From Antedon mediterranea (taxonomy: Eukaryota > Animalia > Echinodermata), in the NCBI RefSeq assembly GCF_964355755.1, contig NC_092673.1:23371648-23435647 (forward strand): 64,000 bases of DNA. The letters are read 5' to 3'. Of the stretch, positions 33,401 to 64,000 are shown one piece after another. The translations under genes were made by a program, and so were the position numbers. The notes below the pieces were generated by a model. The model worked only from the letters and a program-made list of their open reading frames with translations, had not been told where the DNA came from and searched no databases. The first letter of the stretch is position 1. Each line of letters begins with the position of its first letter.

Positions 33401-36400
33401 TTAATCTACCTCTACATTTTACATAAATTTGGTATTACCTTTTCCGCGTTTCTCCAAATGTTTCACATGCACGTTTTCTCATTTCTGCACCATCAGCCTT
33501 TTTCTTCTCTTCATCTCCTCTTTCCTTTGGTAACATTTCTATATCCTCCTCTTCTTGGATGAATTCTTCAATACTTTCCCTTATTTGCTTTTCCTCATCT
33601 GTCTCCTCCACTGCAATTCCACTGGCTGCCTTTTCTTTGTTATTTTTTCCTTTCACCTTATCCATCAAATTAGATATGCGATCTCGCACTGCCCGCCTGT
33701 CAACTTTGTATTCACGGGCCTTCATTGCATCAGCAACAGCCTGCCATGCCTTTCCCCGCTCAGTTGTGCCCTTCTTGGACTGAAAAGGTCTAGCCAAGAT
33801 TACTTCTCCTATTAGGATTTGATCCTTTTGGTTGTCCCAGATCATGCTGAAATAAATAATAAAATCACATAATTTATGATAGTGTTTTTTAATGTAATAT
33901 TTTTCTCATCAATTCAGTGTAGGAGTTTTTAATCTAATGAAGTAATAAATGAAAATAAATAATATAGCTTGAATGAACTATCCACTTTATACAATTAATC
34001 ATGCTAATATTGATTGACATTGATAACACATTTATTTCAGACTGAAAAAAGCATACTATTATATAATATTATATGTTTTGTGCATACAAAAAAAAAGTTT
34101 ACAATTATAATAATATATTAAAATAAATGTAAAAAAGTGAGCACTATTGAATTATCTAACTAACCGGTTTGTACTCTTTTTTGTCTTAATTTCTTCTGCC
34201 TGTTTTGAAAAAAAAATAAATAAAAAATCAAGATAAAAATAATAAAATGTACACAAGCTTATCTACATATATCTTATATTGTATGACAATAAGATAAATA
34301 CTTTAAGCTACATTGGCAGGGAGTTGTTATAAATCTAATAAAGTAAACAACTCCTTTGTTTTAAGCAAAGCAGGATTGAATTGAAGATAATTTGATTAGC
34401 TAGTTTTTATCAATATTATTGAACTTGTCATTTTCTGTCATCTTTTGAGTAGGGGGTCCTACGTATCTAGACCTCCTATTTGTGCAAGTTGTGTTTATTT
34501 GTAGGACCGTGTAGGGATAGCCTAAATGCCAGCAGCTAGGGTATCGCAGCTAGGCCCTAGGCTAGTTAGTTCGATTAGGCCACTGGTTTGCCCTCTATTA
34601 TACTACTACTAGCCTAGGCTAGCTAGGCCCTAGGCCGAATCTCTAAGCCAATTTTTTTATTTTATATTTGGCATCACTGATCTAGAGCACTACATTAATG
34701 AACATTCATTTAATATGCTATAGCCTAGTCTATGTTTGATTACATAAAGCTAAAATAACGACTGATTAAACTGCTTTACCTTTGACGATACTGCTTCCAT
34801 CGTGTCCTTCGTATTAAAATACACAGCTGAATGTTCGTTTCAGACAGGACGCTATTTCTTCTCACTACCGTTCTGAAATTTAGCGCTACGGCGAGTCTTA
34901 AATTTCTGCGCATGCGTAGATCACATTTCGGTTCAAATTACCGTACTGAACTACTTCCGTACTAAAACGAAAGCTCGCTATTAACATTTTTCAAAGCTTC
35001 TTGATTAGTAATCACACAAAACTGACACCACCTGTAGCAGTAGATGCTATATCAGTTGGAGGTGCTCCACTGTCCTTACCAGACCAAAAATAGCAGCTAC
35101 TGCCACTTACTATAGTATAATAAACTGACAATGGCTTAAACCTATACAAGGTTATTTAACAAGCCATGATTTCAACCCATCTTGTCTTTAAATAGAAGTT
35201 TATAATTTTGTTTACTACCCGATAACTAATATCAAATACATTTTTTACAGTACTCAGTAGTCAAATATTTTTATTTATTTTTTTGTATTACTTAATATGT
35301 AATTTTTGTATTGTTCTTTTTGTATTTTAGCCCTTGGTGTCGTTCTGTTTGTATTTCAGAAAAATGCTAATAAAATGCATAATAAAATAGCAATATATTT
35401 TACATTTGACTGATAGCATTTCTGATTATGTACAAATCATAAGAGGAAAGTAAATTAAATTTTACCTGAAGGAGACAGAGTTTATACTACACCCCAAAGA
35501 ATGGGATTTTATTTCTTTAATAGTCTTCACATTTTGATATAGGTATTAATGAAACAGGTGCAGTACTTTCATTTTGTAATGAAATGTAATGGAAGTGCAC
35601 AACAAGATTTAAAATAATATGCATGTGTTCATAATACATTATTTCCCATTCACAATGAGGCCTAAGGCACAATAATTCTTTATGGAGAACAATTGGGATT
35701 TTCCCTAAACATCAATGAGTCATACAGCAGGGTGTGGTAAACACGTTTATGTGAACTGCCTATTACAATCATCACTGACCCAATGTCACGTGACCTTACA
35801 ATGAGAAATGTGACATCATTTCAAAGATGAGTTTTATCAGGTGAACATATTTTCCTCTTTCCACCCAGGTGTATAAAATGGGTACCGGACATCAAGACAC
35901 AACTTTGCGCTGATTACTAGCTGCATTATTGTGGAAGTATTGTGTCCATACTTGTTTGATCCAAAAAAATGACCATGCCTATTGAGAGCTTGTGTATATA
36001 GGCACAATAAGAGTGACCTATTATATGATCATTATTATGATTATTTTTCAGTAAATAAAAATTGAAAGAATCATCAAATTTGTCATCAAATCCTTGTTAT
36101 TTGACCTCATTTTTACCTACGGTAGATGGATCAAAATAATTTATTTTCCAGTGGATAACTTGATTGACAATTACGATATTGAAAACGCATCATGCTGATC
36201 TTGACAGTATGTATGTAATCCTTCAGATTAGATAGAATATTCTATTCATTAAATTATATATGAATTAAAGTCATAATTAAAAGTGGTATTTTCGTCACCA
36301 GAAACTGAATTATATCATAGGGATATTATAGTTCAATATATTAATATCTCTATGCTTATATTTAGTTGAACATTTCACAAGATATCGAAATTTTAAATAA

Positions 36401-45400: not shown

Positions 45401-47967
45401 TAATTAACAGGCAACATACAGTAGTGTCAGTCTTTTGGCAACTTTTTTTTCAATTTTTTTTATGTTGTTACAAAACGTAAACGTATATATTTAAATACTT
45501 TATATCTTCATTTCATCCTTTCAGCGAGCATCTTGTGAATGCTAGGATGCTTCAATGCGACAAGCTTTTTGACAAAAATAATTTAAAATCAGAAAAAAAA
45601 AAAAATAAATCACAATTATTTTCTCCCTTGCCTACAGTAATGAGATAACATGATGCGCTGGAATTACATTTCACAAGTTAAATTGATCGAGAACCTTTCG
45701 AAAAACAATCAATAACAAAATATTCTGTATGGCAGTATAGGTTGGAGTGCTGCACTGTAGAGGTATGGAGTTTTCTTGATGACCAGTTTGCAATCTACAT
45801 TAGTTAAAGTTAAAATGCGGGCTGATACAGTAAATCTTTTGAGTGTAAAACAAATGGTCAAACATTAAGGTCTAGGTCGGAGTTGGTAACCATGGTATAA
45901 CACTGTATGAACACAGTGCAAAAATCCGATTTGTAGGATGACATTAATTGAGTTGCGTATATATAAAAAAATAACTCTTAATAGCTCCATAGTTAAAAGC
46001 ATCAAAACGACGCAACGCTTAATACAGGATATATTTGAAAAGTCCACAGCGTATTGAGAAAGTTTGTGACATTTTTTTATAAGGCACAATAGAAATGGTT
46101 TATATGTATGTATGCGATAAATAATGGGCTATTGTCGGTTTATACAGGTAAGCTAGACACGAAATAGACAACTTTAATACAAACCACAGTAGAACTCCTT
46201 TCTTGGAACACCTGCAATATTTAAGGGACACTTTCAAGTGAATCAAATTTGGTTTGGTCCCAAATGTTTCCCTTAATCCTGGGGTCTCTATACTATACTG
46301 TAAAAATGAACAATGTATCAGTATATCTAAAAAAACAAAAACATTAAAAAACGTACTCTTATTCTTCTCATGGCCGACACAATTTCAACTCTACTGTTTG
46401 GGCGTGGCACATCAAGTGTTCCAATATACTAAAAAAGAAAATTGAAATCGGATTAAATCTGATTAATATATAATTCTATTTTTGTATTTTTTTTTTTTTT
46501 TGTTATCAGTAACAAATTCCAGAAAAATGCCCAGAAATATTCAACAAAAACATTTGAATCTATAAAAGGTTAATAATACAGTATGATGTACAGGTACATT
46601 ATTGTATGAATAATTTTATGAATTATACAATATTAAATGCATAGATTAAATTAGCGAGTGAACCAGGGCATTTAGCAGTGAACCAGGGCATTTAGGAGTG
46701 AACCAGGGCATTTAGGAGTGAACCAGGGCATTTAGGAGTGAACCAGGGCATTTAGGAGTGAACCAGGGCATTTAGGAGTGAACCAGGGCATTTAGGAGTG
46801 AACCAGGGCATTTAGGAGTGAACCAGGGCATTTAGGAGTGAACCAGGGCATTTAGGAGTGAACCAGGGCATTTAGGAGTGAACCAGGGCATTTAGGAGTG
46901 AACCAGGGCATTTAGGAGTGAACCAGGGCATTTAGGAGTGAACCAGGGCATTGAGGCATTCTTCTGTCCCAATGTTGTTGAATAAGCTGTTTTTACTAGC
47001 TATATGCTCAGTTAACCACAAAGAAAGACTTCAACTTAGACCTTTTTAAATTCAATATTAAGTCTACACAAAGCAACAAGTCAATAAAATGTTTATAAAA
47101 ATCAGATAAAAGGCTACGTAAGGTATTCTCATTAGGACAAACACAATCTAACTTTATATTTACAGCATAGCAAATATATTTAAAATTATATTCATATTGT
47201 TTATTACTGGCATTGAAATATTTTATTCTTTTCTAAATATAATTTCTAGTTTAAATGCAAGGTTCAAATTGATTACAGTACAGTAAATTAAAATACTGTA
47301 GGACCAGAATTTAAAAAACATTGGTAGACCAGCAAAAGATGCCATAACATTTGTTTAAAATATTAACTCCTCAAACCAGGGAAGGGTTGTAGGCAGGACC
47401 TGAAACATTTCCCAGGGCCTAGAATTCAGCAAAGTTGCAATGGGGTCTGAAAGCGAAGCGCTCAAGGCAGCATATTTGTTGAGGAAAATAAATTAATGTA
47501 ATGATAGATCTCATGACAAATATTGACTTCCTAAATGCAATCAGAACAAACAATTTTATCAAATCTATGTTTCTCTGTAATAAAAAAGGTTTGTCCAAAG
47601 CATAAAAATTCCCCCCTGCCTACTGTACGAGCCTGGACAACCTACCTCCTCTTGTACCCAAATTAATTTTAATGGACACGTAGTTTTAAACAGATTTCTC
47701 AAGAATACAGCATTTTGTATAATACTGTACATTACCTATACACGGAATATAATATAAGAAATTGTTTATGACTCATGGGATACATAATACCTTCTTGTAT
47801 GTTATTTTATGATGTATTTAAATAAAATTTAAAATGCTTAGCGTTCATTTTTAATAAATTACCTTCGCTTGGAAATGAATACCATGTTGAAACGCTTCGT
47901 CATTATGCAACGGGATTCTGGAATCGTACGTGTCTTCCACCAAATTGTATTTATTCCTTTTAGGCAT
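5481..47967 (-). CDS. NOS1AP: NOS1AP/CAPON homologue (PTB/PID domain adaptor with coiled coil), 9 coding exons, about 634 aa: complement(join(5481..6476,6867..7088,7812..7921,10801..10939,12818..12926,14964..15022,15870..15962,46357..46428,47863..47967))
   Basis: All introns GT-AG with compatible phases, total 1905 nt. Translation [65 protein letters not shown]... and [32 protein letters not shown] closely resemble vertebrate NOS1AP as I recall it. Confidence 0.95.
6867..7088 (-). CDS. NOS1AP: NOS1AP coding exon 8 (coiled coil HQKQLLQQQ...AARIEAQ)
   Basis: 222 nt, CTCTAG acceptor, CAG|GTGAG donor; conserved QTQVAVAQV motif. Confidence 0.92.
7812..7921 (-). CDS. NOS1AP: NOS1AP coding exon 7, linker ([18 protein letters not shown]...DDSYQ)
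   Basis: 110 nt open frame, CTACAG acceptor, CAG|GTATAA donor; its phase 1/0 bridges exons 6 and 8 exactly. No homology support. Confidence 0.75.
9889..10372. mobile_element. 484 bp Tourist/Harbinger-type MITE
   Basis: Perfect TIR GGGTATGTTCAGACTCA with TAA TSD on both sides. Confidence 0.9.
10801..10939 (-). CDS. NOS1AP: NOS1AP coding exon 6 ([22 protein letters not shown]...)
   Basis: 139 nt, TTTTAG acceptor, G|GTAATT donor; PTB C-terminal helix GQAFEVCHK. Confidence 0.95.
11078..11390. repeat. Irregular ~20 bp minisatellite (GGATATAGTCCCACRCT type)
   Basis: About 15 degenerate units with a duplicated block of roughly 100 bp. Confidence 0.8.
11550..11791. mobile_element. Small MITE with ~40 bp imperfect TIRs
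   Basis: AGGC..CAGAATCAA..TTTTTGTTGCCCTGAGG mirrored by CCTCAGGGCAACGAAAAA..TTGATTCTG..GCCT; TSD unclear. Confidence 0.6.
12818..12926 (-). CDS. NOS1AP: NOS1AP coding exon 5 ([36 protein letters not shown])
   Basis: 109 nt, TTTACAG acceptor, AAG|GTACAG donor; core PTB motif. Confidence 0.95.
14553..14905. repeat. Tandem duplication, ~190 bp x2
   Basis: GTAATTTATGGGAAACCCCCAGTAAAAA at 14553 and 14743; GAAAATTCTGTTGATATTG repeated downstream in both. Confidence 0.85.
14964..15022 (-). CDS. NOS1AP: NOS1AP coding exon 4 ([20 protein letters not shown])
   Basis: 59 nt, TTTCAG acceptor, AG|GTAAG donor. Confidence 0.95.
15613..15652 (+). ncRNA. Decayed minimal type I hammerhead ribozyme motif (Penelope-like/retrozyme remnant)
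   Basis: CTGATGA-stem II-C[A]AAA-GCTC; the G of the GAAA box is replaced by A, so probably inactive. Confidence 0.5.
15870..15962 (-). CDS. NOS1AP: NOS1AP coding exon 3 ([31 protein letters not shown])
   Basis: 93 nt, TTTTGCAG acceptor, GT donor, phase 0/0. Confidence 0.95.
17547..17800 (+). mobile_element. tRNA-headed SINE with Deu-domain-like body
   Basis: A box TGGCTGAGCTG, B box GGTTCAAGCC, then GACTATAAATCGTAGGTCC...TTAAAGAACC...GAGTAGGGGTTACCCCAGTGT, resembling the DeuSINE central domain as I recall it. Confidence 0.7.
19447..19701 (-). mobile_element. Second copy of the tRNA-headed Deu-like SINE, opposite orientation
   Basis: Reverse strand reads TGGCCAAGCGG...GGCAAGGGTTTGAGGC...ACTATAAACCATAGATCC...TTAAAGAACCCAG, alignable to the 17547 copy. 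Confidence 0.7.
20681..20726 (+). ncRNA. Second decayed minimal hammerhead ribozyme motif
   Basis: TTGCA-CTGAGGA-A-GGGT(TAGTACT)ACCC-AAAA-GCTC-AGCAA; followed by TCTCCATTGAGA as in the 15613 copy. Confidence 0.55.
21220..21903. mobile_element. Longer (684 bp) copy of the GGGTATGTTCAGACTCA MITE, inverted relative to 9889-10372
   Basis: Same TIRs; the interior is the reverse complement of the first copy plus extra segments; TSD degenerate (TAG/TGA). Confidence 0.9.
28612..29496. mobile_element. Possible Kolobok-type non-autonomous element
   Basis: TTAA|AGCTACAG...CTGTCGCT|TTAA; the TIR is short, so support is weak. Confidence 0.35.
29883..30696. mobile_element. Non-autonomous TIR element (~814 bp), probably Harbinger-related
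   Basis: TIR GGCCCYGTTTCTGCTGCCAA; many subterminal ATATACCGTAT/ATACGGTATAT repeats; TSD not clean. Confidence 0.8.
30941..32349 (+). CDS. Harbinger/HARBI1-like DDE transposase (DDE_Tnp_4 type), join(30941..31128,31458..32349), 359 aa
   Basis: AG|GTAAG donor and CCCTTAG acceptor in matching phase; motifs GFVDGT, YNGHKR, YGDPAY and RISVEWLFG give an intact D-D-E triad. Confidence 0.95.
33026..34800 (-). CDS. Harbinger partner protein with Myb/SANT(trihelix)-like domain and charged/Gln-rich tail, complement(join(33026..33341,33439..33846,34165..34199,34780..34800)), 259 aa
   Basis: Four exons with GT-AG introns in compatible phase (780 nt); W-spaced pattern [10 protein letters not shown]...[11 protein letters not shown]...AVRDRISNL. 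The two small 5' exons are less certain than the two large ones. Confidence 0.85.
35855..36045 (+). mobile_element. Probable truncated SINE remnant
   Basis: CCACCCAGGTGTATAAAATGGGTACCGG resembles conserved invertebrate SINE central domains; ends in an (ATT)-rich tail. Confidence 0.4.
44712..44790. repeat. 21 bp minisatellite x ~3.8 (TTCTAACCCCTTATTTGGGTA)
   Basis: Perfect tandem copies. Confidence 0.95.
46357..46428 (-). CDS. NOS1AP: NOS1AP coding exon 2 ([24 protein letters not shown])
   Basis: 72 nt, AG acceptor and GTACGT donor; PTB domain start. Confidence 0.95.
46651..46952. repeat. 20 bp minisatellite x15 (GAGTGAACCAGGGCATTTAG)
   Basis: AACCAGGGCA every 20 bp from 46661 to 46941, nearly perfect. 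Confidence 0.98.
47863..47967 (-). CDS. NOS1AP: NOS1AP coding exon 1 ([10 protein letters not shown]...[10 protein letters not shown])
   Basis: ATG at 47967-47965, donor AAG|GTAATT; a probable upstream acceptor TTTTGCAG near 48063 implies a further non-coding 5' exon. Confidence 0.95.
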
Positions 47968-48358
47968 GTTTATGTTCTTCTACTTTCAATCTCAAAATAG
48001 TTTTGTTTAATCAAGTCTAAAATCAGTCTTTAATAAAGATAATTCCATTCTTCAAAAAAAACCTGCAAAACAATTCAAAGTTAATGTGTACTACATGTAA
48101 ATTGAAAAATCAAATTGTAGACAATTATTTATTATAATACATTTGTTGAATAGGCTTTCTTTTGGATGGCAACTCAACTTGTCAGCCATTGATAATGAGT
48201 AAAAGCATACCAGAAGATAGATAATTAAGAGGGTTAGGTTTTTAATATTTAGGAACAAGTTTTATATTTAGGTACGGGTTTTAGGAATGCAATTTTACCG
48301 TACCTTTAACGGAAGTGCGTGCCCTCTATAATTACCGTACCTTTACGGTACCATATTT

Positions 48359-50190
48359 GGCGCTAGTTCCGTTTCGCACCTGTTGTTTATTTCGACTCAA
48401 AATTGGTTAAGTAACTTTATCGTGAGTACCACACCTTAGAATTAGGCCTCAAAAATACTTTTACGAAGGAGATCATACAAAAAGTGACAAATAAAAATCC
48501 TTTAAATTGATTAATTTACAGACGTGTTTCTCGCACATTGGTTCGTGAATTTACTCCATGTTCAATGTTGTTGTTTCTATGAAGCGCCAAAAGAGCAATC
48601 ATAATAGAGGGCTAAAAACTCAGTAAATTGTGTATATTTAATGCATTTATTGGTGAAAATTATGTTCAATTTTATCATATTTTGTCAATGTCAATGCAAC
48701 AAATATATTACTGTTGATACTGTACATGGTTTTCGCAGGAACTTTTAGGAATGAAAATCGACAAATTCATCATCATATTACATGACAGTATGTAGTGTAG
48801 GGGTGTACCTGATCTAAATAATATTCCTCTTAGTCTTACGCCCGTATTCTTAAACCGGACTTTAGTCGTAGTTCAAAGTTCGACTTGAAAAAGTCGTAGT
48901 TCGAGCTATTACTTCAAATTCGATTAAAAAATGAAGTAGTCGAAGTTTGCAGTTTGACTTAATGAAGTCGAGCTTTTAGTCGAGTTGCACACGTCTGGGT
49001 AACAAAGGCTAAACATTAGCCAATGACAAGAGAGTATTTGAGGAGCAGATGAAATTTTGGGCATTGATATCACTTTCCATTTTCTTACAAAACTTTTTAC
49101 GCATCAGGACTATATACATGAAAAATAATTTTAATCGTTAATTATTAGAACAAGATCACAGTATTAATTTAACAGTGAAGTACTTTTGATTAACAACAAA
49201 CAAAATCTTCAAAATATATTTAGGAACCATGGCGGTACGGTAACTTTCATATTTTCTAGGCCTCCAACAAAGTATGATCGCGACGAACCACGCACTTCCT
49301 AGCGTGACAAGAAAGCGCTAGGCCCCCTAAACATTCCATCGCGTGGTGAATTGCCGCATCTCCCATTGTCGCTATGGCGTGACGTAGTTCAAGTCGGACT
49401 TGCGCGAAGAAAATAATGTAATTTGTATACAGTTGTAAATAAAGATGATTTTCATTATTATAACTTACACCAATGTATATTTAATTAAGCTAATATAAAT
49501 ATAGATATTTCATTCTTCAATATCTGGCCAATATAACAACTCAAAGACTATTACGTTTTTTATAAACATCGTTTAAAACCATTTAGTTGACCATTGAGCC
49601 TGCCCCCTCCAGGACTAAAAAAATCGATCAAAATCCGTCTCGATTTAGTCAAGGTTGGCCTGATTTAGTCGGTGATTTAGTTGAAGTTCGGTTTATGAAT
49701 TAAAATGACGTCATTTTTTTAGTTTTAGCTTGAACTACGACTAAAGTCCGGTTTAAGAATACGGGCGTTAGTATTACTCTAGGCCTAGGGTTGGTTGCTA
49801 TTTGAAAACAGCAAATTATTAGCAGTAAAATGTTACAGCATTTTTATTGACAAAATATATTAAAATTTAACGTGTATTTCAATAATAAATGCATTAAAAG
49901 AAGACGCATTCCATTGAGATTTTAACCATCTATTGTTGTTGCTCTTTTGGCGCTCCATATAGACACGAAAATATTGAACTTCGAGTATGCTAAATTCGCA
50001 AACGGTATGCGAGAAACATGTCTGTAAAATCATCAATTAAAGGATTTATTTGTTACTTTTTATGCGATTCTTCTTCATAAAAGTACTTATGAGGCCCAAT
50101 TTTCAGGTGTGGTATTCACAACAAGTTGCTTAACAATTTGGAGTCAAAAGGAAGTCAAAATAAAAACAGGTGCAAAACGGAACTAGCGCC
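48359..50190. mobile_element. Merlin-like long-TIR foldback MITE carrying a nested insertion
   Basis: Termini GGCGCTAGTTCCG...CGGAACTAGCGCC, exact 8 bp TSD CCATATTT, ~370 bp imperfect arms. Merlin assignment inferred from GG termini plus 8 bp TSD. Confidence 0.85.
48839..49767. mobile_element. 929 bp Harbinger-type MITE nested in the Merlin-like element
   Basis: Perfect 38 bp TIR CGCCCGTATTCTTAAACCGGACTTTAGTCGTAGTTCAA with TTA TSD. Confidence 0.92.
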
Positions 50191-50679
50191 CCATATTTTT
50201 AGCCACAGCGGTTTTTTTTTAAACTCACTATTTATTCACTGGTCTTTACCCATCATTGCCTAAACGGATATTTTTATTAGGTTTAGAGGTCCAGAGACCA
50301 GATCATCTCAGCGAATAGCAAAGGCAAAAGTATCTCTAAGCGAGCGCTGGGCAGTTGCATTCCGGTGCCAGAACTGTACAGAGTTTTATATCTATTGCCA
50401 CCAAAATTAGTGTCATTGGTCGAAAAAACATTTTAAGAAATCGGTAAATGAATAAGAATAAGAGTATAGGCCTAACAGTAGTAAGCTAATATACACGTAG
50501 CCGGTAAGGCTTCTCTGATTGAGAGTAGGCCTACACTTTCACCTCCTTGCTGGAGTCTGCACTGACTGAGCAGTGCTGGGCTAGCCTCTGGTCTCTGTTA
50601 TGTCAAAAGTGTACATCAAGTATCCGGTGCGGTGGTGGTGGTAAACAATCTAATCTGTCATTTAAAAGTATCAACTTAC

Positions 50680-50874
50680 CTTTTATTAAAAGCTAACTCT
50701 CCAAGGGTTAAAAACGCAATTATATAGTTAAAAACCCCCAAATAGTTTCAGTTATCACAATATCAGGTGAGAATTGAGCAACAAACAACAGACCAACTAC
50801 AATGTTTAGTACCGTCTTACACCAACATCTAACCGATAAATGGTCACGGTGTAAAAAATCGTGATCCATTCATG
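50680..50874 (-). promoter_or_regulatory. Candidate NOS1AP non-coding first exon / promoter-proximal region
   Basis: Strong minus-strand donor AAAAG|GTAAGT at 50680, upstream of an otherwise unpaired acceptor near 48063; no transcript evidence. Confidence 0.35.
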
Positions 50875-51030
50875 CAGCAGGCGCTTGTGTCAAGCTAGCC
50901 AACAATAAGCCAGCCAACAATAAGCCAGCCCACTTTTATTTTTTCCAGCCAACAATAACTATGAAACGCCGTTTGTGCATTCTTTACATTTTTATTGTTA
51001 CTTATGGCTTTTATGGTATTAGGAATTAAA

Positions 51031-54000
51031 TATTTGTGAGAAAAACGGCGGATTGTTCCTGGGATTCACTTGGTGGGATTATACTAGGGTACCCCCTTAG
51101 TCGTCCAGTATAAGTTAGAGTGGGACCACTGGTCCCGTTTACTCAGCCCTCATCATTAAAATTTGAGTGTAACTCAATTACGATTTTTAAAATATAGTTA
51201 AATTTGAAACTGTATTTGTGAGAAAATGGCGGATTGTTCCTGGGAGTCACTTGGTGGGATTATACTAGGGTACCCCCTTAGTCGTCCAGTATAAGTTAGA
51301 GTGCGACCACTGGTCCTGTTTACTCAGCCCTCATCTTTAAAATTTGAGTCTAACTCAATTACAATTTTTAAAATATAGTTAAATTTGAAACTGTATTCGT
51401 GAGAAAATGGCGGATTGTTCCTGGGAGTCACTTGGTGGGATTATACTAGGGTAGCTCCTTAGTCATACAGTATAAGTTAGAGTGGGACCACTGGTACCGT
51501 TTACTCAGCCCTCACCTTTTAAATTTGAGTGTAACTCATTTACGATTTAAAAAATATAGTGAAATTTGATACTGTATTTATGAGAAAATGGCGGATTGTT
51601 CCTGGGAGTCACTTGGTGGGATTATACTAGGGTACCTCCTTAGTTGTCCAGTATAAGTTAGAGTGGGACCACTGGTCCCGTTTACTCAGCCCTCATCTTT
51701 AAAATTTGAGTGTAACTCATTTACGATTTTTAAAATATAGTGAAATTTGATACTGTATTTGTGAGAAAACAGCGGATTGTTCCTGAGAGTCACTTGGTAG
51801 GATTATACTAGGGTACCCCCTTAGTCGTCCAGTATAAGTTAGAGTGGGACCACTGGTCCCGTTTACTCAGCCCTCATCTTTAAAATTTGAGTGTAACTCA
51901 TTTACGATTTTTAAAATATAGTGAAATTTGAAACTGTATTTGTGAGAAAACGGCGGATTGTTCCATAGAGTCACTTGGTGGGATTATACTAGGGTGCATC
52001 CTTAGTCGTCGAGTATAAGTTAGAGTGGGACCACTGGTCCCGTTTACTCAGCCCTCATCTTTTAAATTTGAGTGTAACTCATTTACGATTTTAAAAATAT
52101 AGTGAAATTAGATACTGTATTTGTGAGAAAACGGCGGATTGTTCCTGGGAGTCACATGGTGGGATTATACTAAGGTACGTCCTTAGTCGTCCAGTATAAG
52201 TTAGAGTGCGACCACTGGTTCCGTTTACTCAGTCCTCATCTTTTAAATTTGAGTGTAACTCAATTACGGTAAAAAAATTTTAAAATATAGTGAAAATTGA
52301 TACTGTATTTGTGAGAAAATGGCGGATTGTTCCTGGGAGTCACTTGGTGGGATTATACTAGGGTACCTCCTTAGTTGTCCAGTAGAAGTTAGAGTGGGAC
52401 CACTGGTCCCGTTTACTCAGCCTTCATCTTTTAAATATGAATGTAACTCATTTACGATTTAAAAAATATAGTGAAATTAGATACTGTATTTGTGAGAAAA
52501 CGGCGGATTGTTCCTGGGAGTCACATGGTGGGATTATACTAAGGTACGTCCTTAGCCGTCCAGTATAAGTTAGAGTGCGACCACTGGTTCCGTTTACTCA
52601 GCCCTCATCTTTTAAATTTGAGTGTAACTCAATTACGGTAAAAAATTTTTAAAATATAGTGAAAATTGATACTGTATTTGTGAGAAAATGGCGGATTGTT
52701 CCTGGGAGTCACTTGGTGGGATTATACTAGGGTACCTCCTTAGTTGTCCAGTAGAAATTAGAGTGGGACCACTGGTCCCGTTTACTCAGCCCTCATCTTT
52801 TAAATATGAATGTAACTCATTTACGATTTAAAAAATATAGTGAAATTTGATACTGTATTTGTGAGAAAATGGCGGATTATTCATGGGAGTCACTTGGTGG
52901 GATTATACTAGGGTACCTCCTTAGTTGTCCAGTATAAGTTAGAGTGGGACCACTGGTTCCGTTTACTCAGCCCTCATCTTTAAAATTTGAGTGTAACTCA
53001 TTTACGATTTTTAAAATATAGTGAAATTTGATACTGTATTTGTGAGAAAACGGCGGATTGTTCCTGAGAGTCACTTGGTGGGATTATACTAGGGTACCCC
53101 CTTAGTCGTCCAGTATAAGTTAGAGTGGGACCACTGATCCCGTTTACTCAGCCCTCATCTTTTAAATTTGAGTTTAACTCATTTACGATTTTTAAAATAT
53201 AGTGAAATTTGATACTGTATTTGTGAGAAAACGGCGGATTGTTCCTGAGAGTCACTTGGTGGGATTATACTAGGGTGCATCCTTAGTCGTCCAGTATAAG
53301 TTAGAGTGGGACCACTTGTCCTGTTTACTCAGCCCTCATCTTTTAAATTTGAGTGTAACTCATTTACGATTTTAAAAATATAGTGAAATTAGATACTGTA
53401 TTTGTGAGAAAACGGCGGATTGTTCCTGGGAGTCACATGGTGGGATTATACTAAGGTACGTCCTTAGTCGTCCAGTATAAGTTAGAGTGCGACCACTGGT
53501 TCCATTTACTCAGCCCTCATCTTTTAAATTTGAGTCTAACTCAATTACAATTTTTAAAATATAGTTAAATTTGAAACTGTATTCGTGAGAAAATGGCGGA
53601 TTGTTCCTGGGAGTCACTTGGTGGGATTATACTAGGGTAGCTCCTTAGACGTACAGTATAAGTTAGAGTGGGACCACTGGTACCGTTTACTCAGCCCTCA
53701 CCTTTTAAATTTGAGTGTAACTCATTTACGATTTAAAAAATATAGTGAAATTTGATACTGTATTTATGAGAAAATGGCGGATTGTTCCTGGGAGTCACTT
53801 GGTGGGATTATACTAGGGTACCTCCTTAGTTGTCCAGTATAAGTTAGAGTGGGACCACTGGTCCCGTTTACTCAGCCCTCATCTTTAAAATTTGAGTGTA
53901 ACTCATTTACGATTTTTAAAATATAGTGAAATTTGATACTGTATTTGTGAGAAAACAGCGGATTTTTCCTGAGAGTCACTTGGTAGGATTATACTAGGGT

Positions 54001-56126
54001 ACCCCCTTAGTCGTCCAGTATAAGTTAGAGTGGGACCACTGGTCCCGTTTACTCAGCCCTCATCTTTTAAATTTGAGTGTAACTCATTTACGATTTTTAA
54101 AATATAGTGAAATTTGAAACTGTATTTGTGAGAAAACGGCGGATTGTTCCATAGAGTCACTTGGTGGGATTATACTAGGGTGCATCCTTAGTCGTCGAGT
54201 ATAAGTTAGAGTGGGACCACTGGTCCCGTTTACTCAGCCCTCATCTTTTAAATTTGAGTGTAACTCATTTACGATTTTAAAAATATAGTGAAATTAGATA
54301 CTGTATTTGTGAGAAAACGGCGGATTGTTCCTGGGAGTCACATGGTGGGATTATACTAAGGTACGTCCTTAGTCGTCCAGTATAAGTTAGAGTGCGACCA
54401 CTGGTTCCGTTTACTCAGTCCTCATCTTTTAAATTTGAGTGTAACTCAATTACGGTAAAAAAATTTTAAAATATAGTGAAAATTGATACTGTATTTGTGA
54501 GAAAATGGCGGATTGTTCCTGGGAGTCACTTGGTGGGATTATACTAGGGTACCTCCTTAGTTGTCCAGTAGAAGTTAGAGTGGGACCACTGGTCCCGTTT
54601 ACTCAGCCTTCATCTTTTAAATATGAATGTAACTCATTTACGATTTAAAAAATATAGTGAAATTAGATACTGTATTTGTGAGAAAACGGCGGATTGTTCC
54701 TGGGAGTCACATGGTGGGATTATACTAAAGGTACGTCCTTAGCCGTCCAGTATAAGTTAGAGTGCGACCACTGGTTCCGTTTACTCAGCCCTCATCTTTT
54801 AAATTTGAGTGTAACTCAATTACGGTAAAAAATTTTTAAAATATAGTGAAAATTGATACTGTATTTGTGAGAAAATGGCGGATTGTTCCTGGGAGTCACT
54901 TGGTGGGATTATACTAGGGTACCTCCTTAGTTGTCCAGTAGAAGTTAGAGTGGGACCACTGGTCCCGTTTACTCAGCCCTCATCTTTTAAATATGAATGT
55001 AACTCATTTACGATTTAAAAAATATAGTGAAATTTGATACTGTATTTGTGAGAAAATGGCGGATTGTTCATGGGAGTCACTTGGTGGGATTATACTAGGG
55101 TACCTCCTTAGTTGTCCAGTATAAGTTAGAGTGGGACCACTGGTCCCGTTTACTCAGCCCTCATCTTTAAAATTTGAGTGTAACTCATTTACGATTTTTA
55201 AAATATAGTGACATTTGATACTGTATTTGTGAGAAAACGGCGGATTGTTCCTGAGAGTCACTTGGTGGGATTATACTAGGGTACCCCCTTAGTCGTCCAG
55301 TATAAGTTAGAGTGGGATCACTGATCCCGTTTACTCAGCCCTCATCTTTTAAATTTGAGTTTAACTCATTTACGATTTTTAAAATATAGTGAAATTTGAT
55401 ACTGTATTTGTGAGAAAACGGCGGATTGTTCCTGGGAGTCACTTGGTGGGATTATACTAGGGTGCATCCTTAGTCGTCCAGTATAAGTTAGAGTGGGACC
55501 ACTTGTCCTGTTTACTCAGCCCTCATCTTTTAAATTTGAGTGTAACTCATTTACGATTTTAAAAATATAGTGAAATTAGATACTGTATTTGTGAGAAAAC
55601 GGCGGCGGATTGTTCCTGGGAGTCACATGGTGGGATTATACTAAGGTACGTCCTTAGTCGTCCAGTATAAGTTAGAGTGCGACCACTGGTTCCATTTACT
55701 CAGCCCTCATCTTTTAAATTTGAGTGTAACTCAATTACGGTAAAAAAATTTAAAATATAGTGAAAATTGATACTGTATTTGTGAGAAAATGGCGGATTGT
55801 TCCTAGGAGTCACTTGGTGGGATTATACTAGGGTACCTCCTTAGTTCTCCAGTAGAAGTTAGAGTTGGACCACTGGTCCCGTTTACTCAGCCCTCATCTT
55901 TAACGTTTGAGTGTAACTCAATTACGATTAATATTTTAAAATATAGTGAAATTTGATACTGTATTTGTGAGAAAATGGCGGATTGTTCCCGAGAGTCACT
56001 TGGTGGGATTATACTAGCGTACCTCCTTAGTTGTCCAGTTTAAGTTAGAGTGGGACCACTGGTCCCGTTTACTCAGCCCTTATCTTTAAAATTTGAGTGT
56101 AACTCAATTACGATTAATATTTTAAA
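51031..56126 (+). repeat. Left arm satellite array, ~181 bp monomer x28
   Basis: TATTTGTGAGAAAA starts at 51031, 51213, 51394 and onward; some monomers are 185-188 bp. Confidence 0.98.
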
Positions 56127-59100
56127 GATGAGGGCTGAGTAAACGGGACCAGTGGTCCCACTCTAACTTATACAGGATGACTAAAGAGGTACTCTAGTAT
56201 AATCCCACCAAGTGACTCTCAGGAACAATACGCTGTTTTCTCACAAATACAGTATCAAATTTCACTATATTTTAAAAATCGTAAATGAGTTACACTCAAA
56301 TTTTAAAGATGAGGGCTGAGTAAACGGGACCAGTGGTCCCACTCTAACTTATACTGGACGACTAAGGGTGTACCCTAGTATAATCCCACCAAGTGACTCT
56401 CAGGAACAATCCGCCGTTTTCTCACAAATACAGTTTCAAATTTCACTATATTTTAAAAATCGTAAATGAGTTACACTCAAATTTTAAAGATGAGGGCTGA
56501 GTAAACGGGACCAGTGGTCCCACTCTAACTTATACTGGACAACTAAGAGGGTACCCTAGTATAATCCCACCAAGTGACTCCCAGGAACAATCCGCCATTT
56601 TCTCACAAATACAGTATCAAATTTCACTATATTTTAAAAATTTTATCGTAATTGAGTTACACTCAAATTTAAAAGATGAGGGCTGAGTAAACGGGACCAG
56701 TGGTCGCACTCTAACTTATACTGGACGACTAAGGACGTACCTTAGTATAACCCCACCATGTGACTCCGAGGAACAATCCGCCGTTTTCTTACAAATACAG
56801 TATCAAATTTCACTATATTTTTAAAATCGTAAATGAGTTACACTCAAATTTAAAAGATGAGGGCTTAGTAAACGGGACCAGTGGTCCCACTCTAACTTAT
56901 ACTGGACGACTAGGGAGGCACCGTAGTATAATCCCACCAAGTGACTCTCAGGAACAATCCGCCGTTTTCTCACAAATACAGTATCAAATTTCACTATATT
57001 TTAAAATATTAATCGTAATTGAGTTACACTCAAACGTTAAAGATGACGGCTGAGTAAACCGGACCAGTGGTCCCACTCTAACTGATACTGGACGACTAAG
57101 GGGGTAACCTAGTATAATCCCACTAAGTGACTCCCAGGAACAATCCGCCATTTTCTCACAAATACAGTATCAAATTTCACTATATTTTAAAATATTAATC
57201 GTAATTGAGTTACACTCAAACGTTAAAGATGAGGGCTGAGTAAACGGGACCAGTGGTCCCACTCTAACTTATACTGGAAAACTGAGGAGGTACCCTAGTA
57301 TAATCCCACCAAGTGACTCCCAGGAACAATCCGCCATTTTCTCACAAATACAGTATCAATTTTCACTATATTTTAAAAATGTTATCGTAATTGAGTTACA
57401 CTCAAATTAAAAGATGAGGGCTGAGTAAACGGGACCAGTGGTCGCACTCTAACTTATACTGGACGACTAAGGACGTACCTTAGTATAACCCCACCATGTG
57501 ACTCCGAGGAACAATCCGCCGTTTTCTCACAAATACAGTATCAAATTTCACTATATTTTGAAATATTAATCGTAATTGAGTTACACTCAAACGTTAAAGA
57601 TGAGGGCTGAGTAAACGGGACCAGTGGTCCCACTCTAACTTCTACTGGACAACTAAGGAGGTACCCTAGTATAATCCCACAAAGTGACTCCCAGGAACAA
57701 TCCGCCATTTTCTCACAAATACAGTATCAATTTTCACTATATTTTAAAATTTTTTATCGTAATTGAGTTACACTCAAATTTAAAAGATGAGGGCTGAGTA
57801 AACGAAACCAGTGGTCGCACTCTAACTTATACTGGACAACTAAGGACGTACCTTAGTATAATCCCACCATGTGACTCCCAGGAACAATCCGCCGTTTTCT
57901 CACAAATACAGTATCTAATTTCACTATATTTTTAAAATCGTAATTGAGTTACACTCAAATGTTAAAGATGAGGGCTGAGTAAACGGGACCAGTAGTCCCA
58001 CTCTAACTTATACTGGACAACTAAGGAGGTACCCTAGTATAATCCCACCAAGTGACTCTCATGAACAATCCGCCGTTTTCTCACAAATACAGTATCACAT
58101 TTCACTATATTTTAAAGATCATAAATGAGTTAAACTCAAATTTTAAAGATGAGGGCTGAGTAAACGGGACCAGTGGTCCCACTCTAATTTATACTGGACA
58201 ACTAAGTAGGTACCCTAGTATAATCCCACCAAGTGACTCCCAGGAACAATCCGCCGTTTTCTCACAAATACAGTTTCAAATTTCACTATATTTTAAAAAT
58301 CGTAAATGAGTTACACTCAAATTTTAAAGATGAGGGCTGAGTAAACGGGACCAGTGGTCCCACTCTAACTTATACTGGACGACTAAGGGGGTACCCTAGT
58401 ATAATCCCACCAAGTGACTCCCAGGAACAATCCGCCATTTTTTCACAAATACAGTATCAAATTTCACTATATTTTAAAAATCGTAAATGAGTTACACTCA
58501 AATTTTAAAGATGAGGGCTGAGTAAACCGGACCAGTGGTCCCACTCTAACTTATACTGGACGACTAAGGGGGTAACCTAGTATAATCCCACCAAGTGACT
58601 CCCAGGAACAATCCGCCATTTTCTCACAAATACAGTATCAAATTTCACTATATTTTTTTAATCGTAAATGAGTTACACTCAAATTTAAAAGATGAGGGCT
58701 GAGTAAACAGTACCAGTGGTCCCACTCTAACTTATACTGTACGACTAAGGAGGTACCCTAGTATAATCCCACCAAGTGACTCCCAGGAACAATCCGCCAT
58801 TTTCTCACAAATACAGTATCAAATTTCACTATATTTTAAAAATCGTAAATGAGTTACACTCAAATTTTAAAGATGAGGGCTGAGTAAACCGGACCAGTGG
58901 TCCCACTCTAACTTATACTGGACGACTAAGGACGTACCCTAGTATAATCCCACCAAGTGACTCTCAGGAACAATCCGCCGTTTTCTCACAAATACAGTTT
59001 CAAATTTCACTATATTTTAAAAATTGTAAATGAGTTACACTCAAATTTTAAAGATGAGGGCTGAGTAAATGGGACCAGTGGTCCCACTCTAACTTATACT

Positions 59101-61920
59101 GGACGACTAAGGGGGTAACCTAGTATAATCCCACCAAGTGACTCCCAGGAACAATCCGCCATTTTCTCACAAATACAGTATCAAATTTCACTATATTTTA
59201 AAAATTGTAAATGAGTTACACTCAAATTTTAAAGATGAGGGCTGAGTAAATGGGACCAGTGGTCCCACTCTAACTTATACTGGACGACTAAGGGGGTACC
59301 CTAGTATAATCCCACCAAGTGACTCCCAGGAACAATCCGCCATTTTTCACAAATACAGTATCAAATTTCACTATATTTTAAAAATCGTAAATGAGTTACA
59401 CTCAAATGTTAAAGATGAGGGCTGAGTAAACCGGACCAGTGGTCCCACTCTAACTTATACTGGACGACTAAGGGGGTAACCTAGTATAATCCCACCAAGT
59501 GACTCCCAGGAACAATCCGCCATTTTCTCACAAATACAGTATCAAATTTCACTATATTTTAAAATATTAATCGTAATTGAGTTACACTCAAACGTTAAAG
59601 ATGAGGGCTGAGTAAACGGGACCAGTGGTCCCACTCTAACTTATACTGGACAACTAAGGAGGTACCCTAGTATAATCCTACCAAGTGACTCCCAGGAACA
59701 ATCCGCCATTTTCTCACAAATACAGTATCAAATTTCACTATATTTTAAAAATCGTAAATGAGTTACACTCAAATTTTAAAGATGAGAGCTGAGTAAACCG
59801 GACCAGTGGTCCCACTCTAACTTATACTGGACGACTAAGGGAGTAACCTAGTATAATCCCACCAAGTGACTCCCAGGAACAATCCGCCATTTTCTCACAA
59901 ATACAGTATCAAATTTCACTATATTTTAAAATATTAATCGTAATTGAGTTACACTCAAACGTTAAAGATGAGGGCTGAGTAAACGGGACCAGTGGTCCCA
60001 CTCTAACTTATACTGGACAACTAAGGAGGTACCCTAGTATAATCCCACCAAGTGACTCCCAGGAACAATCCGCCATTTTCTCACAAATACAGTATCAAAT
60101 TTCACTATATTTTAAAAATCGTAAATGAGTTACACTCAAATTTTAAAGATGAGGGCTGAGTAAACCGGACCAGTGGTCCCACTCTAACTTATACTGGACG
60201 ACTAAGGGGGTAACCTAGTATAATCCCACCAAGTGACTCCCAGGAACAATCCGCCATTTTCTCACAAATACAGTATCAAATTTCACTTTATTTTTTTAAT
60301 CGTAAATGAGTTACACTCAAATTTAAAAGATGAGGGCTGAGTAAACAGTACCAGTGGTCCCACTCTAACTTATACTGTACGACTAAGGAGGTACCCTAGT
60401 ATAATCCCACCAAGTGACTCTCAGGAACAATCCGCCGTTTTCTCACAAATACAGTTTCAAATTTCACTATATTTTAAAAATTGTAAATGAGTTACACTCA
60501 AATTTTAAAGATGAGGGCTGAGTAAATGGGACCAGTGGTCCCACTCTAACTTATACTGGACGACTAAGGGGGTACCCTAGTATAATCCCACCAAGTGACT
60601 CCCAGGAACAATCCGCCATTTTTTCACAAATACAGTATCAAATTTCACTATATTTTAAAAATCGTAAATGAGTTACACTCAAATGTTAAAGATGAGGGCT
60701 GAGTAAACCGGACCAGTGGTCCCACTCTAACTTATACTGGACGACTAAGGGGGTAACCTAGTATAATCCCACCAAGTGACTCCCAGGAACAATCCGCCAT
60801 TTTCTCACAAATACAGTATCAAATTTCACTATATTTTAAAATATTAATCGTAATTGAGTTACACTCAAACGTTAAAGATGAGGGCTGAGTAAACGGGACC
60901 AGTGGTCCCACTCTAACTTATACTGGACAACTAAGGAGGTACCCTAGTATAATCCTACCAAGTGACTCCCAGGAACAATCCGCCATTTTCTCACAAATAC
61001 AGTATCAAATTTCACTATATTTTAAAAATCGTAAATGAGTTACACTCAAATTTTAAAGATGAGAGCTGAGTAAACCGGACCAGTGGTCCCACTCTAACTT
61101 ATACTGGACGACTAAGGGAGTAACCTAGTATAATCCCACCAAGTGACTCCCAGGAACAATCCGCCATTTTCTCACAAATACAGTATCAAATTTCACTATA
61201 TTTTAAAATATTAATCGTAATTGAGTTACACTCAAACGTTAAAGATGAGGGCTGAGTAAACGGGACCAGTGGTCCCACTCTAACTTATACTGGACAACTA
61301 AGGAGGTACCCTAGTATAATCCCACCAAGTGACTCCAAGGAACAATCCGCCATTTTCTCACAAATACAGTATCAATTTTCACTCTATTTAAAAAATTTTA
61401 TCGTAATTGAGTTACACTCAAATTTAAAAGATGAGGGCTGAGTAAACGGGACCAGTGGTCGCACTCTAACTTATACTGGACGACTAATGGGGTACCCTAA
61501 TATAATCCCACCAAGTGAATCCCAGGAACAATCCGCCATTTTCTCACAAATACAGTATCAATTTTCACTATATTTTAAAAATTTTATCGTAATTGAGTTA
61601 CACTCAAATTTAAAAGATGAGGGCTGAGTAAACGGAACCAGTGGTCGCACTCTAACTTATACTGAACGACTAAGGGGGTACCCTAGTATAATCCCACCAA
61701 GTGACTCCCAGGAACAATCCGCCATTTTCTCACAAATACAGTTTCAAATTTAACTATATTTTAAAAATCGTAATTGAGTTACACTCAAATTTTAAAGATG
61801 AGGGCTGAGTAAACGGGACCAGTGGTCCCACTCTAACTTATACTGGACGACTAAGGGGGTACCCTAGTATAATCCCACCAAGTGAATCCCAGGAACAATC
61901 CGCCGTTTTTCTCACAAATA
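56119..61920 (-). repeat. Right arm satellite array, same monomer reverse-complemented, x32
   Basis: TTTTCTCACAAATA recurs every ~181 bp up to 61920. Confidence 0.98.
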
Positions 61921-62434
61921 TTTAATTCCTAATACCATAAAAGCCATAAGTAACAATGAAAATGTAAAGAATGCACAAACGGCGTTTCATAGTTATTGTT
62001 GGCTGGAAAAAATAAAAGTGGGCTGGCTTATTGTTGGCTGGCTTATTGTTGGCTAGCTTGACACAAGCCAGCAGGCAGCAGTTTTCAAAGTTTATACTAT
62101 AGCGCCCTCAATATTATTGTTTGTCCCATTTTTCTGCTGGTGGTGGTAGTGTTTTGAAACTGACACAAAACCAGGCAGTCTCATGCTAAATTAAAATCCT
62201 GATCTTTATGTTAAGTTTTCAAATGTATTATAATTATATATAGCAAACGACGTTTTCAGGTAAATATTTATGTACAATTTTCACTAATAAACTATTACTT
62301 ATTAGTAGGCTAATGGAGATGGCAATAGGCTAGGCGCCGGCTCTACTTGTTGGTTGAGGCCTAGGGCCTAGGCTAGGCCTAGCTAGGCTAGAGGCCTACT
62401 CAGATCAGAATCATGCTCTACTACTAGGCTATAA

Positions 62435-62562
62435 GGCGGTGTCAGATGAAATCGGTCGCGTTTGAAATCGGTCGCGATAAAATCAACTTCCGGTATTTTG
62501 TATGGCGCGCCGCTAGAGCTATACGTTTAATGATATCGGTCGCGTTTGAAATCGGTCGCACT
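62435..62562 (+). mobile_element. Probable left end of another DNA transposon (subterminal repeats); other end not in the window
   Basis: TGAAATCGGTCGC-type motif four times (about 62447, 62463, 62531, 62547). Confidence 0.45.
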
Positions 62563-64000
62563 AGGCCCTAGGCCTAGATACATTTTTAATGAAAACGCTA
62601 ATTATGTTTTTAGTTAATTTTGAATATAGAATTTCTAATACTATTAACATTTTTTTTACCTCGATCGTTATTATTTTTTTAGTACAGTAAATATAAATAT
62701 TTATTTCATTATTTATAAATAATTTGTGTTTTCATTTTATCTTACAGACAGGTGTCAATGAATAATTGTAATGTGTTTAGAAAATCGTTTTAAAAAGTGT
62801 TTAAGTTTTTTAAAAGATTAGCATGCCACTGTTTTAAAAATGTTGAAATAATTTATTGCGTATCACAGTTAATTACGAAACTAGTTCTATACCTGCAAGT
62901 GGATACCAGCCACGAGGTTTATGCAATAAAGGAAGATGATGTATGACGATGATTTTTACGTTTGATATCCGCCACTCTTACGTGAGCATGGTTTTAGGAT
63001 AATACTAATATTAATAAAATAATATGCCGTTATAAATCAATCTACCGGGCCTATACAGTAGGACTATGCTGTACAATAGGCCTAGATGTGAGAATAATAA
63101 TGGATGGATAATAAAGGTGGGCACGATTCTCAAAGAGGTAATCTTGCACTGATATTTAAACATTTAGATTTACGAACGGCGTACGGATGTGAGATACTTG
63201 GTACTAAATTATTTACATTAAGTGATCATTATAAATGAAGAAATAAAAGATATTAAAATTAAAAACTATAGTATCGCCGACGTATATACGTATTATATAC
63301 ATTATTTCAAAATGGAACTAGGTTTCACAAAAGCACGTGCAGGCCTATTGATGTTTCAACCGTATGGTTATTAGTAATAGGCCTAGTATACGTCATCTTT
63401 ACATGGCCATGGACAACGATACGTGTTTTGTCCATGATTTGACACACTAGTGCGTGTTTTTTTTAAAAGGGAATCCCCGTCAGCAAAATAACGTGCAGTT
63501 AACGTCAGCACGATCATATCCACGATATGGCATATTTCGGGGTTTATTTCAGTAACTCGCCTTTAAACGATCCGCATATAATAATCATTTTTTACTAGAA
63601 AATATTTTAGGCCTAAACATTAGTAATAAAAATATACACGTCGTGATTTGCCTCAACAATAATCATTATATACTTAATATTATCCTACATAACGTACAGA
63701 CATAAATAAAATAGAAATTAAAATAAGGTGATCCAATAATAGTAAATTTTTAACGACATCGATATTATCTGCCACAAAAATGGATATGCTGGCTTTACGG
63801 GCTATAAATTTAACAATTAATGTTTTTAAATAAATTGTTCTCTTTTACGTAATTGTTTGCATAATAAAAGACACAGACGTATATTCTCTATATATATTAA
63901 TAACAGTACATAATAAAATAGAGGTAAATTATTATATGCCTAATAAAATATTTAAACGTGTTTAGAAATGTCCATTTTGAAAAGACACAGTCCTTCTTCT

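Follow-up and report, generated by a model that had tools for sequence, protein, structure and literature searches.

The window analysed here is a stretch of 64,000 nucleotides from Antedon mediterranea. It contains the first coding exon of NOS1AP/CAPON (47863-47967, minus strand, ATG at 47967), and 2.9 kb upstream of this start codon, outside the gene's coding exons, lies a large repetitive element at 50883-62068. The last exon of NOS1AP is 100% identical to P0001 of Antedon mediterranea. A putative splice acceptor near 48063 suggests that NOS1AP has an untranslated exon further up. The first-pass annotation had described an insertion into genic DNA. This holds in that the element is just upstream of the NOS1AP ATG, but it does not sit between coding exons.

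The ends of the element are exact. When 13 symmetric boundary shifts were tried, the 12-mers at the tips were reverse-complementary only from shift 0 inwards. Directly outside, an exact 8-bp target site duplication (TSD), CAGCAGGC, is found at 50875-50882 and 62069-62076 (both plus strand), as had been claimed. A 6-bp TSD, with the ends one base further out, would give the same empty site, but it leaves mismatched tips, and the 8-bp reading is therefore preferred.

Each end starts with an end-specific outer domain of the terminal inverted repeat (TIR), 148 bp long, at 50883-51030 (plus) and 61921-62068 (minus). The two copies are 99.3% identical, the one mismatch being at element position 111. 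Mirror identity of the arms reaches beyond this domain, with 2 mismatches in the first 400 bp and 7 in the first 480 bp. At the tip itself, a 13-mer forms an imperfect palindrome (50883-50895, plus; mirrored at 62056-62068, minus), which folds with a 5-bp stem and a 3-base loop, the hairpin noted earlier. Both ends begin with GC. Within the window, the palindrome is exact at the two element ends only. Two more matches occur at 2 mismatches, where 1.3 are expected by chance. A 27-base match of 85% to the element end is also present at 14131-14156 (E 0.025).

The palindrome is followed by short subterminal repeats. The 12-bp motif AGCCAACAATAA occurs exactly three times per end, starting at 50897, 50912 and 50947 on the left (50897-50958, plus strand) and at 61993, 62028 and 62043 on the right (within 61921-62068, minus strand). 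The spacer between the first two left repeats is 3 bp. By analogy with the Muta1 element of Aedes aegypti, the palindrome is a likely candidate for a transposase recognition motif. The 12-bp repeats are likewise likely candidates for transposase-binding sites, a function carried over from PMC5499845. With up to 2 mismatches allowed, the motif is absent from both satellite arrays, and an origin of the 181-bp unit by amplification of a transposase-binding repeat was therefore rejected. An Rfam search with the left end and the first monomers found nothing at E values of up to 1.

Between the TIRs there are two opposed arrays of a 181-bp unit. TRF reports 27.9 copies at 51031-56115 and 31.7 copies at 56119-61920, and segmentation by markers counts 28 and 32, the same numbers as in the first-pass annotation. 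The left arm (51031-56126, plus strand) consists of 28 monomers, 181-189 bp in length and ending with a partial one, and their mean pairwise distance is 7.0%. The right arm (56119-61920, minus strand) has 32 in the opposite orientation, of which the innermost is partial and also the most diverged (9.8%). The arms are 5.2 kb and 5.9 kb long. These array lengths rest on the assembly, since the filled 11 kb is spanned by no contig or read seen among those matched.

There is no middle domain. The arms join directly at an 8-bp microhomology, ATTTTAAA, at 56119-56126, which is common to the forward and reverse monomer. Stop-free frames in the element reach at most 100 aa, in agreement with the earlier description of an element without coding sequence, and a transposase is absent among these frames. 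The first-pass annotation called the 181-bp unit nucleosome-length, but nucleosome positioning finds no support here: the autocorrelation of AA/TT/TA is without a peak at 10 bp.

The same site also exists without the element. Three informative runs, X2, X3 and X4, come from one sample, which may be the assembled animal. Contigs of two of the three cross the site with a single CAGCAGGC, the empty site that had been anticipated. In the X3 contig (992 bases), record 139-721 falls on 50300-50882 and record 714-992 on 62069-62349, so these segments overlap by exactly the 8 target bases. The X4 contig (1884 bases) has the same pattern, with 317-899 and 33-324. The contig records for left and right flank were paired by length and depth. 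In X2 the contigs break at the site: the left one stops exactly at 50882, and the right one has 22 letters unlike the TIR ahead of 62069. This is the pattern that would be expected of a fork between two alleles, and the extra depth in X2, about 144 versus 267, would fit a filled junction at half depth. Compared to the empty allele, the flanks of the element have at least 2 substitutions and 3 small indels in about 860 bp. As the reads also contain this site without the element, the insertion is real and likely a recent jump.

It is highly improbable that the assembly erroneously stitched two satellite arrays into a unique locus and that only the empty site is real. The contigs of two of the three runs do hold the empty form only, and none examined crosses the filled element. 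A mis-join, however, would not leave TIR tips that are exact and flanked by a perfect 8-bp duplication. The X2 contig halts on the final base of the target, which is what a filled junction in the reads would produce. In addition, the right flank of the window differs from the empty X3/X4 contig and therefore belongs to another allele, and the duplicates inside the arms, described below, are non-identical.

The ends of this element are found many times over. At 50993-50995, the depth of the element end is 108.3, 107.6 and 108.6 times that of the flank (three of three runs, one sample). At about 108 times single-copy depth, the end belongs to a multi-copy family; such depth sums are not equal to copy numbers. 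The monomer depth is 72-95 times the end depth, a ratio inflated by contig overlaps. X3 and X4 each have one loose end with a sister terminus, which may begin with GG. Among the matches listed (24 and 18), none is a loose end at the terminus studied here. In run X1 (organism A, share 0.08), the TIR and the monomer are present with about 92% identity, without any flank and at low depth, which makes this a hint only. The terminus pattern has 0 loci in metagenome contigs, and the monomer pattern has 0 in metagenome contigs and 0 in prokaryote genome contigs. The 16-base terminus does occur at 5 loci in viral contigs, but the element-like continuation is at most 2 bases in each, and these were taken as chance. 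A literature search found nothing on this crinoid family.

The arms grew by duplications internal to each arm. Self-alignment of the left arm finds a tandem duplication of 12 monomers, 51409-53594 and 53595-55790 (together 51409-55790, plus strand), with 17 substitutions in 2186 aligned bases. Over the first 11 monomers there are 10 substitutions in 2005 bases, half of them private. The right arm has a duplication offset by 7 monomers, with a 717-bp exact match at offset 1277. The longest exact matches are 660 and 717 bp within arms, versus 165 bp between arms. An origin as a perfect palindrome, with one arm copied from the other, was considered and rejected: only the outer 400-480 bp mirror each other, and of the 28 mirror pairs of monomers, one is less than 1% apart.

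It could be argued from this that a short foldback inserted first and reached 11 kb through later growth of its arms at this site, in which case the satellite was not transported as a long unit. The recent duplications in both arms are consistent with such growth, as are exact matches that are longer within arms than between them. The other half of the left-duplicate differences are variants that occur in further monomers too, a sign of ongoing exchange. This history is nevertheless doubtful, on account of the diversity of the monomers. Types more than 1.2% apart number 17 in the left arm and 17-22 in the right, at a median distance of 6-7%, and at cut-offs of 1.2-3% there are at least 12-17 types per arm. 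Because the TIRs differ at only 1 of 148 positions, most of this diversity predates the insertion, and it would be hard for it to arise afterwards. The few differences between the flanks and the empty allele, though a lower bound, point the same way. Finally, the monomer depth makes long arrays at each end look normal for the family, unless free arrays supply most of the monomers.

The element is most probably a gene-less foldback DNA transposon from a multi-copy crinoid family, present in the assembly and absent from the second allele; a transposase of the Mutator kind (MULE/Rehavkus-type) likely acts on it in trans and carries the satellite arms as cargo. The earlier view of a non-autonomous foldback is borne out by long inverted arms in which a terminal domain is combined with tandem repeats, by the empty allele and by the multi-copy ends. 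An ancestral element would have had short repeat-bearing arms, and its middle, presumably with a transposase, may have been lost by the microhomology join at 56119-56126. Unequal exchange or slippage would have lengthened each arm, which would be why the arms are about 93% alike and not a perfect palindrome. With the terminal palindrome and the 12-bp repeats as its binding sites, a Mutator-type transposase from another locus would then cut at the tips of the element and paste most of the array as one unit, leaving the 8-bp duplication. The empty allele may be the ancestral site or the product of precise excision.

MULE TIRs exceed 100 bp and often combine a G/C-rich start with subterminal repeats of 9-15 bp (PMC5225508, PMC13359780); arthropod MULE ends mostly begin with G/C bases (PMC13359780). 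The 148-bp outer TIR, the 12-bp repeats and the GC start agree with this, and these features are not exclusive to MULEs. An autonomous Mutator/MULE copy encodes a DDE transposase of the MULE type. The 8-bp TSD is within the Mutator/MULE range of 8-11 bp (PMC6446971), and foldbacks are mostly Mutator-related (PMC4079207). Repbase places non-autonomous elements by equal TSD length and by alignment of positions 1-11 (PMC4455052); with Muta1, the sole MULE terminus compared, there is no such agreement, as the terminal sequence differs (PMC5499845). The first-pass annotation knew of no superfamily with this terminus. The layout does have a precedent in Muta1, although the sequence is different (PMC5225508, PMC5499845). 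The list of 8-bp superfamilies given at that time (hAT, P, Merlin, Zisupton) omitted Mutator, where Muta1 has a TSD of 8 or 9 bp.

An 8-bp TSD is not diagnostic of a superfamily. The same mobile element might thus be moved by Merlin, hAT, P/Galileo or Zisupton, which is unlikely but does deserve some weight. Zisupton has an 8-bp TSD, which fits the length found here, and a SWIM/SAP-domain protein. The termini of hAT and P (Galileo) start with CA or TA, whereas both ends here start with GC. The P superfamily includes the foldback Galileo (PMC4079207). Merlin has TSDs of 8 or 9 bp and TIRs of up to 462 bp, often with tandem repeats inside, but Merlin ends begin with GG (PMC8101967). The sister terminus in the X3 and X4 loose ends may begin this way; the element itself does not. 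The combination of a palindrome, a 12-bp repeat with a 3-bp spacer and a TIR of about 145 bp is the one described for Muta1.

The first-pass annotation saw the element as a vehicle for satellite; carriage of satellite by foldbacks has been published (PMC4079207, PMC12581902) and is not a new mechanism. The published spread of satellite DNA in this way is mostly known from fixed copies in assemblies. The Antedon element is an unusually clean case: its ends are exact, its 60 monomers surround no middle domain, and the same sample also has an empty allele. It extends to crinoids a satellite-armed foldback pattern known from beetles and flies. If the whole array does move, a single jump puts 11 kb of satellite beside a gene, and an animal with both the filled and the empty allele permits allele-specific expression and chromatin tests.

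A broader reading is offered tentatively, and may well turn out to be wrong. Most of the Antedon 181-bp satellite might reside in about fifty quasi-palindromes that have no middle, measure about 10 kb or more, are mobile at present and move as whole units, with transposition setting the satellite's distribution. This would be a lineage expansion from a short-armed ancestor, a second organism having the older end variant and far fewer monomers per end. Heterozygous insertions like the one by NOS1AP would then allow an allele-against-allele test of the effect of a satellite block on the neighbouring gene.

Foldbacks are not new to echinoderms. The TU elements of Strongylocentrotus purpuratus have long modular inverted repeats with short tandem repeats at the outside and are flanked by an 8-bp TSD, but their arms are much shorter than those here, and they have a middle segment.

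Muta1, a MULE and type 2 foldback, is close in the layout of its ends (PMC5225508, PMC5499845). It has a TIR of about 145 bp and a TSD of 8 or 9 bp, compared to 148 bp and 8 bp here; both elements have an imperfect terminal palindrome starting with G, 10 bp long in Muta1. Both also have 12-bp subterminal repeats, with spacers of 3-4 bp in Muta1 and 3 bp here, but Muta1 has 9 of these against 3, and the terminal and repeat sequences differ. Its palindrome and repeats were shown to matter for binding and excision, and it has many non-autonomous derivatives, is enriched near genes and excises precisely. As described, Muta1 is without 181-bp satellite arms, and the Antedon element is without a transposase.

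Tetris of Drosophila virilis is a non-autonomous foldback in which, as here, a unique flanking domain is followed by tandem repeats (PMC4079207). Its repeats are about 220 bp in both arms, its TSD is 8-10 bp, Mutator has been suggested for it, and it is a satellite source. Its arms do not exceed 1,735 bp, contain few repeats and have inner and middle domains, whereas the 5.2 kb and 5.9 kb arms here meet directly.

The arms themselves resemble, by description, those of Rehavkus-1_TC, Rehavkus-3_TC and TfSat06 in Tribolium, where TIRs are likewise followed by long inverted satellite arrays (PMC12581902, PMC10218199). The unit of Rehavkus-1_TC is 164 bp, Rehavkus-3_TC termini have up to 50 repeats, and those of TfSat06 elements are sometimes over 11 kb. 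The Rehavkus transposase has a PHD finger. The Rehavkus TSD is 9 bp (PMC6446971), compared to 8 bp here. The satellite-ended Tribolium foldbacks have been proposed as a vehicle for satellite spread (PMC12581902, PMC10218199); compared to them, the Antedon element is without a central region, lives in an echinoderm and is seen together with its empty allele.

The element at 50883-62068 is a genuine foldback transposon whose arms are satellite arrays; it carries no gene and is polymorphic. It is 11,186 bp long, and CAGCAGGC flanks it directly on either side as an 8-bp target-site duplication (TSD). Its ends are mutually reverse-complementary starting at base one, and the outer 148 bp, the terminal inverted repeats (TIRs), differ at a single site. 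This is as described in the first-pass annotation, which had claimed an 8-bp TSD and 148-bp TIRs with one mismatch. The mirror match of the two ends continues inward, with 2 mismatches to about 400 bp and 7 by 480 bp, until an indel interrupts it.

Between the TIRs lie two arms, both built from a 181-bp unit but oriented against each other. TRF gives 27.9 and 31.7 copies. Segmentation gives 28 forward monomers on the left (51031-56126) and 32 reverse monomers on the right (56119-61920), each 180-189 bp, with the innermost ones partial; these are the numbers originally claimed. The absence of coding sequence, also claimed, holds up, with a longest stop-free frame of 100 amino acids. A query of Rfam with the left end and first monomers gave no match.

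The annotation had proposed looking for an empty site with a single 8-bp target, and this exists. The left junction is present, whole or in part, in five sequencing runs, four from one sample of organism B and one from organism A. Contigs were aligned for four of the five runs at the left junction and for three at the right, and left and right records were paired by length and depth. Three organism B runs matter here (X2, X3 and X4), all from the one sample, possibly the assembled animal itself. In X3, a 992-base contig matches 50300-50882 with its bases 139-721 and 62069-62349 with its bases 714-992. A 1884-base contig from X4 crosses the same empty site (317-899 for the left flank, 33-324 for the right). 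In both contigs the left and right matches overlap by 8 bases, which means a single target copy and no element.

X2 behaves differently. Its left contig stops exactly at 50882, and its right contig has 22 non-TIR letters before 62069. Breaks of this kind are what a fork separating two alleles produces, and the surplus depth of about 144 versus 267 would be compatible with a filled junction at half depth. Relative to the window, the empty contigs have 2 substitutions and two small indels in the right flank, and the X2 left flank has a 3-base insertion; two alleles are therefore present. No contig among those aligned to the junctions crosses all 11 kb of the filled site. The allele lacking the element could be the ancestral site or the result of precise excision. 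For Muta1 in yeast, excision is reported as precise in over 90% of events (PMC5499845).

Only the outermost of 28 mirror pairs of monomers is less than 1% apart, hence the arms are no mirror images. Mean monomer distance is 7.0% within the left arm, 6.0% within the right and 6.8% between them, where the longest exact match is 165 bp. Each arm has its own duplication: 12 monomers on the left (17 substitutions in 2186 bases; over 11 monomers, 10 in 2005 bases, 5 of them private), and one at a 7-monomer offset on the right, with a 717-bp exact match. Collapsing near-identical monomers leaves 17 types on the left and 17-22 on the right at a 1.2% cut-off, or 12-17 at 3%. This diversity is far above the differences between TIRs or allele flanks, so the bulk of the array likely arrived together with the insertion. 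At 56119-56126 a forward and a reverse monomer overlap in 8 shared bases, with nothing else between the arms.

Summed end depth at 50993-50995 is 108.3x (X2), 107.6x (X3) and 108.6x (X4) flank depth. With flank depth taken as diploid, this would correspond to roughly 50 two-ended copies, an approximate number since summed depth does not equal copy number. There are at least two end variants (X3 depths 444 and 164). X3 and X4 each also have one contig in which a sister terminus, with a similar imperfect palindrome and without the 12-bp repeats, is joined almost directly to the end's inner part (break at 50998). At the lowest column listed, the monomers reach 7,800-10,200x flank depth, which amounts to 72-95 per end; contig overlaps inflate these values by an estimated two- to threefold. 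They are thus compatible with most monomers being carried in elements of this type, though some may sit in free arrays. In organism A, run X1 has the minor end variant plus monomer (50905-51183, about 92% identity) without the flank. Monomer depth there is 4-9 times end depth, a low share that weakly hints at long arms being lineage-specific. Elsewhere in the window, 14131-14156 (-) is a 27-base, 85% match to the terminus (E 0.025), a relic or chance.

The neighbouring gene is NOS1AP. Its last exon, 5481-6476 (-), is 100% identical to an Antedon mediterranea NOS1AP/CAPON-like protein, the best of 9 hits; the next-best are from other echinoderms, a hemichordate and amphioxus. The first coding exon is 47967-47863 (-), with its ATG side toward the element, which thus lies 2.9 kb upstream of the start codon. 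Near 48063, a possible splice acceptor suggests an untranslated exon further upstream, so that, judging by sequence, the element may sit in a 5'-UTR intron.

The window holds other repeats. A PIF/Harbinger-type element in a NOS1AP intron (30752-34983; inverted ends 54 nt, 81%) has DDE_Tnp_4 (31429-32349, +) and Myb/SANT-like (33435-33905, -) frames and may be intact. Inverted copies of one repeat, about 90% alike (9883-10349 and 21263-21909), bracket three NOS1AP coding exons (15938, 12919, 10942); no TSD is evident at their outer ends, and they are probably two separate MITE copies. Nested inverted-repeat elements (48353-50196; arms 48353-48392/50157-50196 and 48835-48892/49714-49771) lie between the first NOS1AP coding exon and the foldback, with a related copy at about 2700-3400. 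The first coding intron of NOS1AP holds a 20-bp minisatellite (46651-46956, 15.2 copies, 98% matches). Immediately right of the foldback is a high-copy repeat (62340-62800; depth up to about 3,000x flank at 62457-62485) that contains runs rich in TAGGCC and multiple occurrences of a CG-rich motif. There is also a 113-bp tandem repeat (94-575, about 3.6 copies) and a degenerate 18-bp-based array (11078-11388).

As to origin, the middle of a foldback ancestor would have been deleted when its opposed arms joined at a microhomology, and unequal exchange would then have lengthened the arms. A transposase acting in trans would recognise the terminal palindrome (the outermost 13 bp) and the 12-bp repeats, three per TIR, and cut and paste the entire element. 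Repair of the staggered cut would give the 8-bp duplication. The 12-bp motif was not found inside the arrays, whose 181-bp units therefore look like cargo and not additional binding sites of that kind. Mutator-type mobilisation is likely but unproven.

The best model for the ends is Muta1, described with a 145-bp TIR, an imperfect palindrome of 10 bp at the terminus, 12-bp repeats separated by 3-4 bp and an 8- or 9-bp TSD (PMC5225508). The end design is alike but the sequences differ, so this is a likeness of design, not membership. According to Table S1 of that paper, 10 of 14 families have subterminal repeats. In Muta1 the palindromic pattern is reported to influence binding, and more repeats to give more excision (PMC5499845). 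Merlin termini are described as beginning with GG (PMC8101967), and the Rehavkus TSD is given as 9 bp (PMC6446971).

Tm1, a further Mutator foldback, is reported to have short motifs in tandem and TSDs of 8-10 bp (PMC3169594). In Tetris, each arm is described as combining a flanking domain and ~220-bp repeats; its TSDs are 8-10 bp, and a Mutator origin has been suggested for it (PMC4079207). For Tribolium, Rehavkus-3_TC is reported with up to 50 repeats in inverted termini, TfSat06 with inverted termini, some over 11 kb, and transposition is proposed as the route of spread (PMC12581902, PMC10218199). The literature searched on Antedon and crinoid satellites and foldbacks yielded no description of this family. 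Satellite-armed foldbacks are an already known kind, of which the Antedon element is one more member. What sets it apart is that it lacks a middle, that the join can be seen and that it is heterozygous beside a gene; the Tribolium copies may include middle-less ones.
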